From Minisyncoccota bacterium (GTDB lineage Bacteria > Patescibacteriota > Minisyncoccia > Phycocordibacterales > Phycocordibacteraceae): a DNA stretch of 58,673 nucleotides. The notes beneath the pieces are model-generated. The model saw only the letters and a program-made list of their open reading frames with translations. It ran no database searches and was not told the DNA's origin. Both the position numbers and the translations under genes were made by a program. Of this stretch, positions 26,783 through 41,143 are shown piece after piece. The stretch is taken from assembly GCA_018062445.1 (NCBI GenBank), contig JAGOSG010000002.1, forward strand, positions 1 to 58,673. Direction: 5' to 3'. Each line of letters begins with the position of its first letter. The stretch's first letter is position 1.

Positions 26783-26944
26783 GAACCCATTTCAAAATCT
26801 CATTCCGGCTCTGCAAGGTTGGATTTCAGGCTGCGATGCTTCGTTTCAAACTCGACATATCTCAGGATATGCCTCGTCCTCCAACGAAAGCTCTCGCTCT
26901 GAAATACCGCCTTTCGGCTCGAAAGCAGATTTTAAAATTGGTTC
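26783..26944. mobile_element. MITE-like non-coding element with 18-bp imperfect terminal inverted repeats
   Basis: gaacccatttcaaaatct (26783-26800) and agattttaaaattggttc (26927-26944), 16/18 complementary, with nested internal hairpins. Confidence 0.55.
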
Positions 26945-27012
26945 TGGCGTTGAGGGTCTAGCGAAGACACAAATATACAAAAAGACTAAGTGGCTAAATG
27001 ATTAAGTAGAGA

Positions 27013-27054
27013 CGATATAGTTTAATCTAACGATCGTTAGATTAAACTATATCG
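27013..27054. promoter_or_regulatory. 42-bp perfect palindrome, site 1 of 3 (candidate operator or recombination site)
   Basis: cgatatagtttaatctaacga|tcgttagattaaactatatcg. Confidence 0.75.
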
Positions 27055-27090
27055 ATTTTTCTCTCTATATCTTGGTGAAACCCTTGAAGA

Positions 27091-27672
27091 TTATTTAGCT
27101 GGAGACAAACCAAAGCGTTTTCGGAGAGCTCCGTCATTCTCTATGGTGTCCGCAATGATGTAGAGAACCTCCTGTCCCATCTTGAGGTCAGCCTTAATGA
27201 GAATAATCAAATCTTCACAATCATACGGATACGCCCACACACTATTTTGCAGGCGAACAAACCCAAGATTGATAAGTGCCATTCGCATCTTGTCGCGCAA
27301 ACCTCGTCGCTTTTCTTCGATATCAAAAACAAGCACACGCCACTTACCATCCCATTGCTTTGGTTTTTTAGGAGTCAGCGCACCTTCATGCACCAGCATC
27401 GCAAATCGCTCCCCTTTCGGAGTTAAAGACGCATACGAAGTGCCATTTCTTTTTTCAAGAACAATGTACCCCTCACGAATCATTCGTGAAAAAGATTCTT
27501 TCACCTGATAGCGTCGTTGATTAAGAAATTTCATCTTTCCCAACGCACCTAAAACATTTGGTGCGACAGCTGCCACAGCAAGAGTGCCTGTCAGTGCAAC
27601 AGCACTGACAATCGCGTTGTTAATTTTTGTTCGACGAATCTTCCCCTTCAGTGCCTGTTCAATTTTCCCCAT
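27091..27672 (-). CDS. PaaX-like transcriptional regulator (wHTH plus Cas2-like ferredoxin-fold domain)
   Basis: LTPKGE wing, WDGKWRVLVFDIEEKRRGLRDKMR, LGFVRLQNSVWAYPY. Confidence 0.8.
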   Translation of the reverse strand: MGKIEQALKGKIRRTKINNAIVSAVALTGTLAVAAVAPNVLGALGKMKFLNQRRYQVKESFSRMIREGYIVLEKRNGTSYASLTPKGERFAMLVHEGALTPKKPKQWDGKWRVLVFDIEEKRRGLRDKMRMALINLGFVRLQNSVWAYPYDCEDLIILIKADLKMGQEVLYIIADTIENDGALRKRFGLSPAK

Positions 27673-27720
27673 AAATAATCCTTTCTAAAAAATAATGTAG
27701 CAAAAATGCTTAAATAATAA

Positions 27721-27762
27721 CGATATAGTTTAATCTAACGATCGTTAAATTATACTATACCG
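27721..27762. promoter_or_regulatory. 42-bp imperfect palindrome, site 2 of 3, 49 bp upstream of the PaaX-like gene
   Basis: cgatatagtttaatctaacga|tcgttaaattatactataccg; contains TATAAT on the minus strand. Confidence 0.75.
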
Positions 27763-27808
27763 TGAGAATATAAGGAATATAGTGCAAAACCAGCTATACC
27801 CGAGAACA

Positions 27809-28459
27809 CTAGTTCTTTTTTCGAAGAGCGATAGTTTTCCAAACAATAATTCCTAAACTAATCACCGCAAACAGCCCTCCCGCAAACCACGCTCTATACT
27901 CAAGGCTGATTGGAAAACCGAAAAAGTTAAAGAAGTACCCTTCTAGAAATTCGTGTACAAGTGGTGGCATCAGAACAAACGCGAGCGAAAATGGAACCCA
28001 AAAGTAAACAAATTTAAGCCATGCTCTCAATATAATGTGAGAGCTGCTGACATTTCTCTCCAAGAATACCGCCAGTAACTTGCCAACGATAATCCCCACA
28101 CTAACCATGACAAAAAGACTGCTCATTAAAAATACGGCGTCTTTTTGAATAAAGGAGTAGATTGGCATCATTGCACTACCTGGTTGTGATGCGGCCAAAA
28201 TAACCAACACTGAAAGCGGAATCCACCATCGTGCGAATTTGAACCAGGAGTTAAAAATTGAGGAAGAAACAAAAATAAGAAAGAAGGCGAGAGGTAGAAC
28301 TACAACTGAAAAAAGGTAAACGGGTATGAGCAAATCAAAAGACTGATGTACTAATGATCCGTAACAGGTATCGAGAGAATCAACACACCAATGTGCAACA
28401 TAATCTAATACTATCCCAAAAAGTATCAAAAATAACGGGATGAACTGTTTTATTTTCAT
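27809..28459 (-). CDS. Hypothetical multi-pass membrane protein with an internal two-fold repeat
   Basis: FNSWFKFARWWIPLS...SVGIIVGK vs LRAWLKFVYFWVPFS...SLGIIVWK. Confidence 0.7.
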   Translation of the reverse strand: MKIKQFIPLFLILFGIVLDYVAHWCVDSLDTCYGSLVHQSFDLLIPVYLFSVVVLPLAFFLIFVSSSIFNSWFKFARWWIPLSVLVILAASQPGSAMMPIYSFIQKDAVFLMSSLFVMVSVGIIVGKLLAVFLERNVSSSHIILRAWLKFVYFWVPFSLAFVLMPPLVHEFLEGYFFNFFGFPISLEYRAWFAGGLFAVISLGIIVWKTIALRKKN

Positions 28460-28473
28460 AGATTTTTAAATAA

Positions 28474-31400
28474 TCAAAAAAGAAAATTCAAAAGCTTAAA
28501 GGATTTCCATAAGTCATTGTATACCCCCCGAATAAGGCGGAAGAAATCCCTCTGTTGAGAAAGGGCGCCGAAAGCTGAAGCTGTCTGCGTGGTAACGGGA
28601 GTTTTTTGAATAGACTGTTTTTCTGGCTTCTTAGTTGGTGTCTCTATATTCTTTATTGGTAGAACCTGAAAAGTTTCTACCAGCGTAGTTGTTGCATGAG
28701 CTTGTGTTGAAGTAGATTCATAAAAAACAGCGACTGTGCTGGTGCCAGCAACAATACCTATAGGGGTATTCCAAATAGGTCCTCCTCCAGTGGGTACGAC
28801 GACATTCTCAACCGAACTTTCTTCAGGCACTTCAGGTTCAGGTTCTTCATAGATTACAGTTTCCCCAACTAACGGCTGAAGTGTAATATCGATTACCCCA
28901 TCACCGTCTTCATCAACTTCAAGGAGTGATGTGCTCTCAATACCATCTCCTATGTTTAAGGTAACTAGTGTATTTTCAGTTGTGGGTATGTTGGCGAGAA
29001 TAGTTTGCCTAGTTACACTACCCCCTTCAACTTCTTGAATATCGAGCGAGAAGGTTCCTACATCAAGTCCATTTAATACAAGCCGATACTCTGGACCTTG
29101 TGGAGCAATGATGTACTGCACATCTCCAAACTCTCCGTATTCAACATCAGGAATTTCTTGGTCAAATGAGCCATCTGCATTGTGCCCAACATGATTTCCA
29201 GATGAGTCATACAGCTCGAGCGTAAGTGGAGAGTGAAGAAAGAAGCGAAGTTTTTTTGTTTGCTCTGCTGGAGTGGGTTGCTCTATTTGAACATAACTAG
29301 TAAGAGCCTTTGTTTCATCAAGAATGTTTTTAATAAACTGACGCAATTCAGAGACTTCCAGAATATTTCCATGATCACTTGGATTATCTCTATGGTCATT
29401 ATTATAGTCTTTTAAGTCCACCCAATATCTCTTCACATTTTCAGTACTCGTGCTCATCATGAGAGCGCTCGGAATAGGTACGACTCCATCACCGTCTTCA
29501 ACAAAGAGTGGGCGATATGCCTTTGGGTTAAGAGCAGTGAAGGCACTCACCTGTGGTGCATCATAAAATTCAATACCTGCCACAGTATCTTTCCCCCACC
29601 CAGCGATTTGATACAGGGTGATATTTTCTGGTGGCACCCACACATCAAGGGTTTCATGGAGTAAATGCGCATAATCAACAAGAGTCGAATTCAAAACATT
29701 TGCTCTGCCAATTTGTCCTGAAAGAGGTTTTTCTCTTCCTCCATCTCGCGCAAGTAAAAAATCACCAAGCTCTATTTGATTACCAATGACTAATCCATAC
29801 GCAGTTCGCTCTTTCTCAAGAGCTCTTTCACCACCAAAAATAACGACAGGGTGATTAATGTCTTTCGTGTCATCGAAATATCTTTGTGACGGGAGCAGGT
29901 GGTAGCCCATCGGGGAATTCTCTGCAAACTCACGAGCAACGGAAGCCTTCACTACGAATGGAAAAAAGTCCGGTATCCCCTCTCTGTAGCCGTACAGGAG
30001 CGAACCAATACTTTGTGGTGCCCCGCTTTGCGGAACACCCACCAAAATAATCTTATCTACCAACTTTTGAGCCTCTACATCTCCAAGCTGTTCTAGTAAT
30101 GCTTTCGTTACTAATCCACCATTTGAATGCGCCACAATGGTCACTTTTCCTGTTTGCGATTGTGATGCAAGTGCTCGGAGCGTCTGAGTAATATAGGGCG
30201 TTGAGGTGGCCGTGCCATAAAAAATCTTTCCATCAACTTCGGCACCATTTGCAAGAATATCGTCCAAAGAAAGGCGCCAGTCGTATGCAACAGACTGCCA
30301 GTCTTCTATATCTCCACTACTCTCCAGAGCATCCATATCAGCAATGAAAGATTTGTAATAATCCTTTCCTCCTGCTGAATCAAGAACGCTCCCCTCTTTC
30401 ACATATACATTTCCGATGCTCTTGCCGTTTGAATCGAGTGACATGCCTCGCACATCATCGTTTCCTTCAAACAAGTCCGGTTCCCATAACTTATTTTCCG
30501 AGCCATCAGTCTCCACATAGAGACGGCTCCCTTTAATGCCAGGCAAAAACAGGACACTCGAACAGCACTTCTGAAACTCAGTTGGAGAAAATGGCGTGGT
30601 TTGAATAATGGAGGCATCTCCATCAATGGTGCCGTAGAAAGAAACATATGTTGAATCGTCAGGTATATCTCCTGCACACCCAACACAAGAGAGTGCAACA
30701 TCGTTTTCGTCGTCCCACAACACAAAGTGGGTCGACGAGGTCATACGAAATGAAAAATAGCGGATGTACGGCGTGAAAGTGGTATCGGGCGCCAGTGATG
30801 AATAGTCGGGTGCATTTGTCACACACAAATCACCAACTACCAAGACTGAGGTACGAAAAGCTCTACCATCGTTATAGGGAGTCTTCAATCTCAAATGAAC
30901 ACGAAGTAACCCGTCTACATACTCTGCACTTTCTGATGAGTCAAAATAATACCCGCTTGCACTCCCTGCACTGCAGGGAGTGGGTGTATCTATTGTGTTT
31001 TGAAATGAAGGGGGCTCTGCATCTTTTTGTATGTTCAGAGTTTTTGAGGTAAAAACACTCCCACCATTATCTATAGTTCCTTCAAAAGCGATTCTCGTAT
31101 AGAGAGGTACTGCGGGTATGTCAAAGCCAGTCACAATTGCTTCATTTTGATCATCCCATACATCAAAGTGCTCGCCAGAACTAAAACGAATACTCCAATT
31201 CGTCACTCCAGTAGGCAGACTTATAGAAACAAACGAGCTCGTGGAAGTTAGCGGATTACATTCATCGTCGAGATATGACCAACGAAGGCTAAAAGAACGC
31301 CCATCTGCATATTCAGGTAAATTATGAAAACTATAAATCAAATAGTCACCGTCTGAGTACTGTACATTTTCGTACGAATCAAAAAAATAACCGCTGGCGG

Positions 31401-31503
31401 AAAGAGAAGACAATCCACATGGTGCAGTGTCAGCAAATACTGGTATAGGAAAAAAGACAAGAACGAAAAATAGAACGACAATGGTCGCCACAGTTCTCTT
31501 CAC
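28474..31503 (-). CDS. Large secreted alpha/beta-hydrolase (LCAT/PGAP1-like lipase or acyltransferase)
   Basis: Signal peptide, two SASGY(F/Y)FDS repeats, VLFLPGIKGSRL, YDWRL, nucleophile elbow AHSNGG, GDGVVP, HGNI, DEDGDGVID Ca-binding-like motif. Confidence 0.78.
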   Translation of the reverse strand: MKRTVATIVVLFFVLVFFPIPVFADTAPCGLSSLSASGYFFDSYENVQYSDGDYLIYSFHNLPEYADGRSFSLRWSYLDDECNPLTSTSSFVSISLPTGVTNWSIRFSSGEHFDVWDDQNEAIVTGFDIPAVPLYTRIAFEGTIDNGGSVFTSKTLNIQKDAEPPSFQNTIDTPTPCSAGSASGYYFDSSESAEYVDGLLRVHLRLKTPYNDGRAFRTSVLVVGDLCVTNAPDYSSLAPDTTFTPYIRYFSFRMTSSTHFVLWDDENDVALSCVGCAGDIPDDSTYVSFYGTIDGDASIIQTTPFSPTEFQKCCSSVLFLPGIKGSRLYVETDGSENKLWEPDLFEGNDDVRGMSLDSNGKSIGNVYVKEGSVLDSAGGKDYYKSFIADMDALESSGDIEDWQSVAYDWRLSLDDILANGAEVDGKIFYGTATSTPYITQTLRALASQSQTGKVTIVAHSNGGLVTKALLEQLGDVEAQKLVDKIILVGVPQSGAPQSIGSLLYGYREGIPDFFPFVVKASVAREFAENSPMGYHLLPSQRYFDDTKDINHPVVIFGGERALEKERTAYGLVIGNQIELGDFLLARDGGREKPLSGQIGRANVLNSTLVDYAHLLHETLDVWVPPENITLYQIAGWGKDTVAGIEFYDAPQVSAFTALNPKAYRPLFVEDGDGVVPIPSALMMSTSTENVKRYWVDLKDYNNDHRDNPSDHGNILEVSELRQFIKNILDETKALTSYVQIEQPTPAEQTKKLRFFLHSPLTLELYDSSGNHVGHNADGSFDQEIPDVEYGEFGDVQYIIAPQGPEYRLVLNGLDVGTFSLDIQEVEGGSVTRQTILANIPTTENTLVTLNIGDGIESTSLLEVDEDGDGVIDITLQPLVGETVIYEEPEPEVPEESSVENVVVPTGGGPIWNTPIGIVAGTSTVAVFYESTSTQAHATTTLVETFQVLPIKNIETPTKKPEKQSIQKTPVTTQTASAFGALSQQRDFFRLIRGVYNDLWKSFKLLNFLF

Positions 31504-31567
31504 ATATACATCTTTCCCCTTCTAAGAAAATGCGCCACCCAATCCATCGTAATTAAGTGGAAAACCT

Positions 31568-31609
31568 CGATATAGTATAACTTAACGATCGTTAAATTAT
31601 ACTATATTG
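31568..31609. promoter_or_regulatory. 42-bp imperfect palindrome, site 3 of 3, 65 bp upstream of the lipase-like gene
   Basis: cgatatagtataacttaacga|tcgttaaattatactatattg; contains TATAAT on the minus strand. Confidence 0.75.
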
Positions 31610-39812: not shown

Positions 39813-39930
39813 AATAGGGTTTGACTAGCGACGTAGAGTGAGAGAAATACAAAAGTACGCTTTTGGATTTCCGAACCGAGGACGCTAGAAAGGATTGGCG
39901 GGATTCCCCGACACATCCTTACAACTGAAT

Positions 39931-40024
39931 ACGTATCAAGAGTGTGAGGAGGCATCTGGGCCTATGATTCACCAGCAACTTGTCGAAAGATAAAGTGCTA
40001 CCAGCCCTTCGGGGAAAGATATCT
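39931..40024 (+). ncRNA. SAM-I riboswitch aptamer upstream of metK
   Basis: TATCAAGAG...GGAGGCATCTGGGCCTATGA...CCAGCAAC...GTGCTA...GAAAGAT matches the SAM-I consensus; P3 acttgtc-gaaa-gataaagt, P4 ccc-ttcg-ggg. Confidence 0.85.
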
Positions 40025-40029
40025 TAAAC

Positions 40030-40090: not shown

Positions 40091-41143
40091 ATGCTTCACT
40101 TACTTAAGACATACACAACCGAGAGCGTTACCGCAGGACATCCCGACAAAGTCTGCGATCAAATATCAGATGCCATTTTAGATGCATGCTTAACGCAGGA
40201 TCCAACGAGTCGAGTCGCCGTTGAATCCTTCGGCAGTCATGGGTACATGATGCTTGGTGGTGAAGTACGCACAAAGGCGACTATTGATTACGCAGGTATT
40301 GCAAAACAGGTATATACAGATATTGGCTACACAGAACCATTAGACATTCTTGAACACATCGCAAAACAATCTGGAGATATCGCGATGGGGGTGGACACCG
40401 GTGGCGCAGGCGACCAAGGCATCATGTATGGTTATGCCACGAATGAAACAAAAGAAATGCTCCCGCTCGGTGTTGTACTTTCACATGCACTCGCACGACG
40501 CCTTGAAGCACTCCGCCGCGGAGGCACACTTCCATGGGCACGGCCTGACGGAAAGACACAAGTCACTATTTCAAACGGAAAAGTAATTACTGCACTCACT
40601 TCAACTCAACACACAGCAGATGTTTCTCAAGAAGAAATCCGCACGAAACTCATTGAGCATTTATTCGGGCCGGTCCTCGGAGATTTGTCTGGAATTGAAA
40701 TATTGGTAAATCCAACAGGTCAATTTATTCAGGGAGGCTTTGAGGCAGACGCAGGACTCACTGGACGAAAAATAATGGTGGACACCTATGGAGGCCTCAT
40801 GCCACACGGAGGCGGAGCTTTCTCAGGAAAAGACGCCACGAAAGTTGACCGTTCGGCCGCATACATGTGCCGATTTGCTGCAAAGAATCTCGTTGCAAAT
40901 GGCTACGGAACTAAAGTATTAGTCTCAGTCGCCTATGCTATTGGCCGTGTGGAGCCGGTGATGGTAGAAGCCTTCGATGATTCTGGAAAAGATTTAAGTG
41001 AGATTGTACAGAAAAATTTTGACTTCCGTCCACGAGCAATCATCGAGCGCCTCGGTCTCACCCGCCCTATCTTCCAACAGACAGCGGCATATGGACACTT
41101 CGGAGTTGAAGGTAGACCGTGGGAAAATATTGAGAAGATTTAA
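40091..41143 (+). CDS. metK: S-adenosylmethionine synthetase
   Basis: TTESVTAGHPDKVCDQISD, GAGDQG, DAGLTGRKIMVDTYGG, GGGAFSGKD. Confidence 0.96.
   Translation: MLHLLKTYTTESVTAGHPDKVCDQISDAILDACLTQDPTSRVAVESFGSHGYMMLGGEVRTKATIDYAGIAKQVYTDIGYTEPLDILEHIAKQSGDIAMGVDTGGAGDQGIMYGYATNETKEMLPLGVVLSHALARRLEALRRGGTLPWARPDGKTQVTISNGKVITALTSTQHTADVSQEEIRTKLIEHLFGPVLGDLSGIEILVNPTGQFIQGGFEADAGLTGRKIMVDTYGGLMPHGGGAFSGKDATKVDRSAAYMCRFAAKNLVANGYGTKVLVSVAYAIGRVEPVMVEAFDDSGKDLSEIVQKNFDFRPRAIIERLGLTRPIFQQTAAYGHFGVEGRPWENIEKI

Follow-up and report, generated by a model that had tools for sequence, protein, structure and literature searches.

Long palindromes bracket a PaaX/Cas2-like gene family of Patescibacteria and are probable cognate sites of its products

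PaaX of Escherichia coli is a repressor whose operator, TGATTC-N27-GAATCA, is a 39-bp dyad, and it autorepresses its promoter Px by blocking RNA polymerase (PMC9493321). A shorter PaaX-type gene lies on a 58,673-nucleotide stretch of DNA from a Minisyncoccota bacterium (contig JAGOSG010000002.1, positions 1 to 58,673; this whole stretch is called the window below). It encodes a 193-aa protein that joins a winged helix-turn-helix (wHTH) to a Cas2-like domain, and three 42-bp palindromes, S1 to S3, surround it and a neighbouring lipase unit. In the Cas1-Cas2 complex of CRISPR systems, Cas2 dimers sit on the middle of a DNA duplex. Candidate phyla radiation (CPR) bacteria, to which the Paceibacteria belong, have very small genomes in which few regulators can be recognised, and there is no genetics for them. 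Judged from the sequences, we consider it rather probable that the palindromes are the cognate sites of a dimeric PaaX-type protein that binds genome-wide and acts as a repressor of both its own gene and the lipase operon.

The three palindromes were found by direct reading and a repeat search. S1 (27013-27054) is a perfect 2x21 palindrome, CGATATAGTTTAATCTAACGA|TCGTTAGATTAAACTATATCG, with the centre ACGA|TCGT. It starts 36 nt past the stop codon of the 193-aa gene (27091-27672, minus strand). S2 (27721-27762) is a near-palindrome of 42 bp whose upstream arm on the minus strand is TAGTATAAT. It lies 48 nt 5' of the start of the same gene (27672) and 45 nt past the stop codon of a membrane-protein gene, and its arms disagree at -20, -12 and -7 relative to the centre. 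S3 (31568-31609), also a near-palindrome (19 of 21 pairs), has TAGTATAAT in its minus-strand upstream arm and TATAAC in the opposite arm, and lies 64 nt 5' of the lipase start codon (31503). With three or fewer mismatches allowed, the degenerate site pattern occurs only at S1 to S3 in the window and is absent from 100 shuffles. Every gene of the module region is on the minus strand. In the direction of transcription, the order is S3, lipase (31503-28474), membrane protein (28459-27809), S2, 193-aa gene (27672-27091), S1, an insertion of ~165 bp and a 499-aa HerA/TraD-like ATPase (minus strand, start 26761).

A preliminary description of this DNA had reported three 42-bp sites in a common frame, S1 being perfect, and the reanalysis bears this out. 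The distances that it gave to the minus-strand units (49, 65 and about 90 bp) are also correct, at 48, 64 and ~87 nt as measured here. The last of these omits the insertion, with which S1 stands 251 nt from the ATPase start. As described, S2 is identical to S1 over its left 21 bp and to S3 over the first 18 bp of its right half. S1 is 100% identical in seven related loci (L001, L005, L006, L007, L101, L107 and L114), and a counterpart of S2 is found in all relatives. The cognate site upstream of the lipase is kept in L001, L005-7, L002, L004 and L010. As single-strand DNA, S1 is predicted to fold into a hairpin of -16.8 kcal/mol (z = -8.6).

The 193-aa protein matches Pfam PaaX_M (PF20803) with 71.6 bits (cutoff 24, E 5.9e-20) and NCBIfam Cas2 (TIGR01573) with 29.8 bits, above the cutoff of 24.5. 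The PADLOC Cas2 models match too. Because the family passes TIGR01573, databases name such proteins 'Cas2'. The score against the PaaX equivalog TIGR02277 (48.6 bits) is far under the cutoff of 264.55. The C-terminal effector (phenylacetyl-CoA) domain of PaaX is missing, as there is no PaaX_C match and the protein ends after the Cas2-like domain. No homology to HUH/Y1 transposases is found for this protein, which matches only PaaX_M and Cas2. There is no tandem CRISPR array in the window and no cas1 among the neighbours scanned in the window and its relatives.

In the AlphaFold model, residues 111-187 form a confident Cas2-like ferredoxin fold and residues ~50-96 form a recognition helix, a wing and a further helix. 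Residues 50-83, the recognition helix and wing, align with PaaX residues 57-100. The preceding residues 8-53 are hydrophobic and have a predicted local distance difference test (pLDDT) score below 50. Within them, residues ~17-45 (window 27538-27624) form a family-conserved stretch of 29 uncharged hydrophobic residues, INNAIVSAVALTGTLAVAAVAPNVLGALG, with basic residues on either side, which could be a membrane anchor or unusual wHTH helices 1-2. PaaX structure 8a39 is the best sequence match and also the best Foldseek match, with Cas2 structures at ranks 2-30. The wHTH has weak matches to the centromere-binding protein AspA. The Cas2 beta1 Asp D117 (in FDI), R126, R130, S144, D151, E153 and D175 are invariant in the family, and Q142 is conserved too. 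The family sequence FDIPE corresponds to LLLSE in E. coli PaaX.

Clustered at 50% identity, the family has 5,983 clusters in a profile search at E<=0.001 and 2,858 at 1e-10. Among GTDB species representatives there are 565 family loci, all in metagenome-assembled genomes (MAGs) of Patescibacteria/Paceibacteria type, with several paralogues per genome.

The family was surveyed in a sample of 85 loci (916 kb). Occurrences of the centre RCKR|YMGY are bimodal in the palindromy of their flanks, with a random mode at ~4/16 and a second mode at 10-16/16. Approximately 62 of the 85 loci hold 2x21-bp palindromes with lineage-specific arms and the conserved centre RCKR|YMGY. Among the centres, GCTATAGC and CGATCG/CGGTCG/CGACCG/CGGCCG are the most frequent. 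A site stands on each flank of the gene in 40 non-redundant loci, at 0-100 nt from the start codon on the upstream side and at 0-35 nt from the stop codon on the downstream side. Past position 21, both the palindromy and the identity of flanking sites with each other drop to background, and the 2x21-bp site is therefore constant throughout the family. The arms of two sites flanking the same gene are 0.75-0.79 identical, and those of different loci 0.32-0.41. S1 is the downstream flanking copy, which most family members with detectable sites have. The downstream copy belongs to the regulator and not to the neighbour gene, since the two flanking sites share their arms and the next genes are convergent or unrelated. 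Next genes that run in the same direction as the regulator are unrelated housekeeping genes, such as those for SecA, GyrB, an aminoacyl-tRNA synthetase or RNase HII. Consistent with this, L002 has no S1 counterpart upstream of its ATPase homologue.

Long palindromes with the GCTATAGC centre and other arms also occur away from detectable family genes (L073 9377 and 10090, L065 8154, L023 8880, L036 3997). The pair in L073 is 713 bp apart and encloses only small open reading frames (ORFs). Such extra palindromes may be the dispersed sites of other paralogues, or may have been left behind by genes since lost. Searched with a hidden Markov model of the family, the stretches that extra sites enclose in L073, L065, L023, L036 and L032 gave no further paralogue. 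Only L079 holds one, at 843-1320. It is a shorter, distant wHTH and Cas2-like paralogue (family profile E 7.6e-12) bracketed by palindromes with a GCTATCGC centre, so the bracket reaches past the subfamily studied here. The literature searched contains no description of a protein/palindrome system of this family. It is apparently an undescribed, large protein-plus-palindrome system of ultra-small (CPR/Paceibacteria) bacteria.

The arms of the palindromes vary together with the wHTH. Paralogues of one genome carry different arms. In partial Mantel tests that control for divergence of the Cas2-like domain, arm divergence correlates with wHTH divergence for the outer arms (r=0.29, p=0.0005) and the inner arms (r=0.21, p=0.001). 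The rate of divergence of the wHTH is approximately double that of the Cas2-like domain (p-distance 0.69 vs 0.36). This fast wHTH and slow Cas2-like domain mirror the variable arms and conserved centre of the sites. Subfamilies defined by the recognition helix pair with arm motifs: RKKNxKYxI is found with TTACCTAAC, and SRxRL with a short wing is found with ATACR. The PaaX/Cas2-like protein encoded alongside is very probably what binds the sites.

Within the subfamily, the conserved neighbour of the wHTH/Cas2-like gene (L001, L002, L004) is a lipase with an LCAT domain, which is matched by four of 33 neighbouring proteins scanned. In the window, this lipase (28474-31503, minus strand) is a secreted-type LCAT-family alpha/beta-hydrolase of 1009 aa (LCAT E 4.5e-13). 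The second gene of its unit (27809-28459, minus strand) encodes a multi-pass membrane protein of 216 aa with no Pfam match. The relatives L002, L004 and L010, with 74%, 68% and 55% protein identity, have three cognate sites bracketing the regulator and the LCAT lipase/small membrane protein. In these relatives the site sequence has changed in concert at all three positions. The arms are TATAGTATAAAATC with centre ACGGTAGC in L004, and CGGTCTAGTATAATTATGC with centre TATA in L010. Cognate sites remain upstream of both regulator and lipase in all three despite the altered arms and centre. This pattern supports a functional link between regulator and lipase.

Before its LCAT domain, the lipase carries two similar N-terminal modules of ~150 aa (ASGYFFDSYENVQYSDG... 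and ASGYYFDSSESAEYVDG...), and its N-terminus is hydrophobic, as is typical of proteins that are secreted or lie on the surface.

The order of the units differs between lineages. It is site-regulator-site-lipase-membrane protein-site in L002 and L004, and site-lipase-membrane protein-site-regulator-site in the window, L001, L005-7 and L010. This circular permutation can be fitted by cassette shuffling, and equally by ordinary unequal recombination between 42-bp repeats. The preliminary description had proposed the former as one of two alternatives, a cassette-type site-specific recombination with crossover at the central CGATCG, in which the regulator gene and the lipase unit would be mobile cassettes. 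It had noted that sequential cassette insertion would leave a hybrid such as S2, though hairpin-driven gene conversion could also give one. The bracketing of n units by n+1 sites agrees with cassettes. Some centres resemble combinations of half-centres, such as GCTA|CCGT in L004, and the asymmetric centres of flanking pairs are inverted in ~10 pairs and direct in ~5. The hybrid, however, rests on two positions that assort freely. The variable positions within the site family are only -20/-19, -12, -7 and -1, and what separates the A from the B half-sites is -12 (T/A) and -7 (C/T), or 2-3 of 21 positions overall. All four combinations of -12 and -7 occur among the half-sites of one genome (AT 19, TC 5, AC 5, TT 5, with AA at 2 more), and close relatives have other A/B mixtures at S2 and S3. 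The A-B' arrangement is thus one mixture of many and requires no crossover at CGATCG.

Comparison of relatives gives no further hold for cassettes. The preliminary description had named loss or shuffling of blocks exactly at the palindrome centres as a check, but no breakpoint lies at the sites, and only the order of the units is permuted. The only non-homologous block among the window, L001, L005, L006 and L107 is 27901-28642, comprising the membrane gene and the last ~55 lipase codons, and neither of its ends is at a palindrome. The block has no detectable similarity to L001/L005/L007, where a 141-aa gene is present, and it is collinear with L006/L107, whose gene encodes 222-228 aa. It is an allelic swap inside the module. 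No recombinase gene is found near the module in the window or in relatives, and no chimeric sites with unrelated arms are seen. Chimeric or solo half-sites are almost absent (L025 position 1582 and one unrelated metagenome match), and most dispersed copies bracket nothing. Recombination of cassettes is therefore a highly improbable explanation of the sites.

Dispersed copies of the site are present in this lineage. Further sites were sought with the half-site pattern in metagenomes of the Joint Genome Institute (JGI). The search gave 43 stretches, nearly all of them full palindromes, which represent 23 distinct intergenic places in related contigs. Four contigs of Ga0207952, inferred to be one genome, total ~789 kb and contain 18-19 sites, including the regulator locus, which adjoins the same ATPase. 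Crude ORF calls give 9 tandem, 5 divergent and 6 convergent contexts. The dispersed copies have a mean identity of 89%. In 344 kb of lineage DNA there is one regulator gene and one site family. Strains with flanks of only 75-95% identity have the sites in the same places, and the sites are therefore older than the strains and under constraint, which indicates purifying selection. No presence/absence polymorphism is found: wherever orthologous places could be compared, both strains have the site.

These copies change the scope of the regulon. The preliminary description had suggested an autoregulated regulon of three operators. The part of this that is supported is that the sites are cognate and that the regulator's own gene and the lipase are conserved targets. 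It is too narrow for 23 places and for bracketing on both flanks, and the ~20 other intergenic copies per genome point to a genome-wide, site-specific binder and not a private three-operator switch. A regulon united by shared function was considered and rejected, since the genes beside downstream and dispersed sites are unrelated housekeeping genes.

Three strain comparisons (L100 2136-2610 vs L117, L113 vs L103, and L108 vs L123) show indels of 200-470 bp directly beside dispersed palindromes. One of these indels holds a 92-aa ORF, and the palindromes themselves are kept. The sites may be hot spots of local rearrangement. In the window, the ~165-bp insertion between S1 and the ATPase gene (26783-26947) resembles a miniature inverted-repeat transposable element (MITE), with terminal inverted repeats GAACCCATTTCAAAATCT ... 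AGATTTTAAAATTGGTTC. It is also present in L005/L101, is missing in L001, L006, L007, L107 and L114, and has no second copy in any locus examined.

The sites in this clade may also overlap promoters. The TATAAT reported for S2 and S3 in the preliminary description is present, and it is on the transcribed (minus) strand. It occupies the gene-facing arms of both sites, the opposite arms having TTTAAT or TATAAC. In the centre-aligned profile, a -10-like T-A-W-A-A-T stands at -13 to -8, with A at -12 in 78% and T at -8 in 65% of sites. Sequences like Shine-Dalgarno motifs lie between the sites and the start codons. Overlap of site and promoter is plausible in this clade on these motifs.

Repression by a bound dimer accounts best for these features taken together. 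The 193-aa protein would be a PaaX-type binder reduced to a winged helix and a Cas2-like dimerisation domain. Two Cas2-like domains would pair over the conserved centre (CG-RY-CG here and GC-TA-TA-GC in most relatives), and two winged helices, approximately three helical turns apart, would read the lineage-specific outer arms at positions ~14-21. With TATAAT 8-13 bp from the dyad at S2 and S3, transcription would start near the dyad centre, and the bound dimer would occlude RNA polymerase. The expected outcome is repression of the regulator's own gene and of the lipase/membrane-protein operon. S1 could serve as a second operator for looping, as a roadblock or as the promoter of the next gene. 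We infer binding, dimer geometry and repression from what is seen directly, namely the sites, their association with the gene family-wide, their co-evolution with the wHTH, their dispersal and their conserved positions.

Several observations weigh against repression as the main function of the sites. A convergent gene comes after the downstream site in at least 10 loci of the survey. At least two dispersed sites separate real genes that converge on each other (Sua5; M23 peptidase), a setting that offers nothing for an operator to repress. The genes whose 5' ends face a site are unrelated to one another (GluRS, ParB, RecG, YchF, pol III delta-like, CofE-like and an acyltransferase). Each half-site holds ~36 bits, against ~16 required for picking out ~20 sites in 0.8 Mb. 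Palindromy includes the 27-bp 'spacer' too, and conservation is far beyond that of ordinary operators. The two arms of a site agree above random pairing at -20 (p=0.0004), -19 (p=0.011) and -12 (p=0.005), and palindromy at times extends into the unique flanks, up to 52 bp. A sigma-70 scan finds no -35/-10 pair at the sites. No conserved -35 precedes the upstream sites, and across the family the quality of the -10 does not differ between sense and antisense strands. In the protein, the low pLDDT of the hydrophobic residues 8-53 allows that the HTH is incomplete or the protein membrane-anchored. The Cas2 catalytic Asp and several charged residues are invariant although they are lost in E. coli PaaX, which hints at a function beyond dimerisation.

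Many of these observations would be expected if the palindromes were semi-autonomous dispersed repeats, comparable to the repetitive extragenic palindromes (REPs) and the REP-associated tyrosine transposases (RAYTs). The product of the flanked wHTH/Cas2-like gene would recognise them through their arms, and its Cas2-like domain would cut or nick the centre, leading to dispersal, homogenisation or maintenance of the repeats. Effects on neighbour genes would be secondary. The gene is flanked by its own palindromes, and the 23 places have tandem, divergent and convergent contexts beside unrelated housekeeping genes. The 89% copy identity and the large information excess agree with such repeats, and symmetrised arms and palindromy into the flanks are expected if hairpins or cruciforms form. 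The Cas2 beta1 Asp and charged residues are kept here and lost in PaaX. Several paralogues per genome with private arms resemble multiple RAYT groups with their REP doublets (REPINs), and indels and the MITE-like insertion cluster beside sites. The protein, however, is no HUH/Y1 transposase, and no Cas2 domain is known to catalyse transposition. Neither presence/absence polymorphism nor target-site duplications are seen, places are shared at 75-95% flank identity, the copy number is low (~20) and extra cognate copies are rare within +/-6 kb of other family members. An origin of this kind is therefore rather unlikely, though it is the alternative to which we give most weight.

A more specific form of this idea, that a wHTH-guided, Cas2-derived domain nicks or cleaves the CG-RY-CG / GC-TATA-GC centre of its own 42-bp palindromes, is doubtful on the present evidence. 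If it were true, thousands of Paceibacteria genes would be the protein partners of an unrecognised REP-like palindrome system. A Cas2 relative would then have a non-CRISPR, non-HUH route for maintaining, symmetrising or spreading hairpin-forming DNA.

The symmetry of the arms can be read in more than one way. Orthologous sites at times differ by an identical change on both arms. Such symmetry could come from correction templated by hairpins (quasi-palindrome correction) or from selection for a structure that can be extruded, and a symmetric dimer alone is insufficient to explain it. The palindromes could also act as RNA or DNA hairpins, that is, as terminators, processing sites or mRNA stabilisers independent of the neighbouring protein. 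The start of many copies is 0-35 nt past a stop codon, some copies separate convergent genes, and the stems are predicted to be long and stable. A simple scan calls S1 terminator-like, on the + strand only. The stems, though, are AT-rich and have no U-tract on the transcribed (minus) strand, five sites are between divergent genes, and Rfam gives no family match at the sites. On the sense strand, arm mismatches comprise 31 G.T, 22 A.C and 87 others. This absence of a G.U-type wobble bias indicates symmetry at the level of DNA rather than an RNA hairpin. A terminator also has no need of paralogue-specific arms that co-vary with a wHTH. We regard hairpins acting on their own as very improbable.

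Dispersal could instead reflect chromosome organisation or membrane tethering in the manner of ParB-parS or Noc and its binding sites (NBS). An N-terminally anchored protein would tie the ~20 palindromes together or to the membrane, with any effects on transcription being incidental. Dispersal of the sites, their independence of gene orientation and their conserved positions agree with this, as does the place of the gene beside the best-conserved site, S1. The 29-residue uncharged hydrophobic stretch is family-conserved and outside the modelled wHTH, and the weak wHTH matches to AspA point in the same direction. Several paralogues per genome with private sites are hard to square with a single organising system, and the lipase operon is conserved as a specific target. 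The hydrophobic segment has an ambiguous topology and may match, on the alignment, the first two PaaX wHTH helices. Tethering is accordingly an improbable main role.

The remaining window neighbours of the 193-aa gene, besides the lipase, membrane protein and ATPase, are an LTD protein, a kinase and a NUDIX protein, and there are no paa catabolic genes. A defence system was considered for the module and rejected, as a PADLOC search gives only the Cas2 models and weak HerA/mad8 matches for the ATPase. Phage origin was likewise rejected, with no relatives in viral contigs and no PHROG match. Elsewhere in the window, an S-adenosylmethionine (SAM) riboswitch (RF00162, 47.6 bits) lies at 39930-40025 (+), upstream of a plus-strand ORF (40091-41143). 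The unit of this ORF is among the few plus-strand units of the window.

The family comprises ~6,000 clusters at 50% identity that databases label 'PaaX' or 'Cas2', and a widespread Cas2 misannotation could be corrected. In most loci examined, the presumptive DNA site is written on one or both sides of the gene. The dozens to hundreds of natural protein/site pairs are enough for deriving a winged-helix recognition code and for predicting regulons in uncultured bacteria. The system also raises the questions of why palindromy spans all 42 bp, why conservation of the centre goes with that of the Cas2-like domain, and whether a relative of Cas2 acts on specific DNA sites outside CRISPR. How these episymbionts control lipid scavenging may be connected with the conserved link to a secreted LCAT-type lipase.

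Compared with known systems, the sites differ from intrinsic terminators, which have a GC-rich stem and a U-tract on the transcribed strand. Only S1 matches that pattern, and on the non-coding (+) strand only. Integron attC sites share with the palindromes imperfect symmetry, hairpin potential and the bracketing of gene units by n+1 sites. They differ in having an integrase and variable cassette content. Here it is the centre and not the ends that is conserved, there are no breakpoints at the sites, and most copies stand alone. HrcA-CIRCE, ParB-parS and Noc-NBS also have near-identical palindromes, over-conserved for recognition, with the gene of the binder beside a site. Noc further resembles the present system in its dispersed sites and its N-terminal membrane-targeting segment. 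The folds of these proteins are unrelated to the one described here, and the sites here are much longer and form many paralogous protein/site pairs.

REP/REPIN-RAYT systems likewise have a gene flanked by cognate palindromes, dispersed intergenic copies, several pairs per genome and stable inheritance. RAYTs are relatives of HUH/Y1 transposases that act on single-strand hairpins with a GTAG foot. The present system instead has a wHTH and Cas2-like protein, a conserved hairpin tip or dyad centre and a low copy number, and no mobility is observed. Cas2 of CRISPR adaptation and the VapD toxins share with the family the ferredoxin-like fold, the motif xLVxFDI...R...R...GF.RLQ.SVW and the beta1 Asp. 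Unlike Cas2, the domain here is fused to a wHTH, without cas1 among the neighbours or a CRISPR array in the window. The repeats are 42-bp palindromes parted by genes and not a spacer array.

PaaX remains the closest described relative. The protein here differs from it in its length of 193 aa, in lacking the phenylacetyl-CoA-binding C-terminal domain and nearby paa genes, in keeping the beta1 Asp and in its hydrophobic N-terminal stretch. Its sites differ in being palindromic over the whole 42 bp, with a family-conserved centre, a second copy after the gene and ~20 dispersed copies per genome. The two proteins share a Cas2-like PaaX_M domain, which in the present protein follows a putative N-terminal winged helix like that of PaaX, and 8a39 is the best match in both sequence and fold. 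With the PaaX operators Pa, Pz and Px, the sites share a long dyad of ~40 bp, half-sites approximately three turns apart and, if the protein binds as proposed, autoregulation by promoter occlusion.

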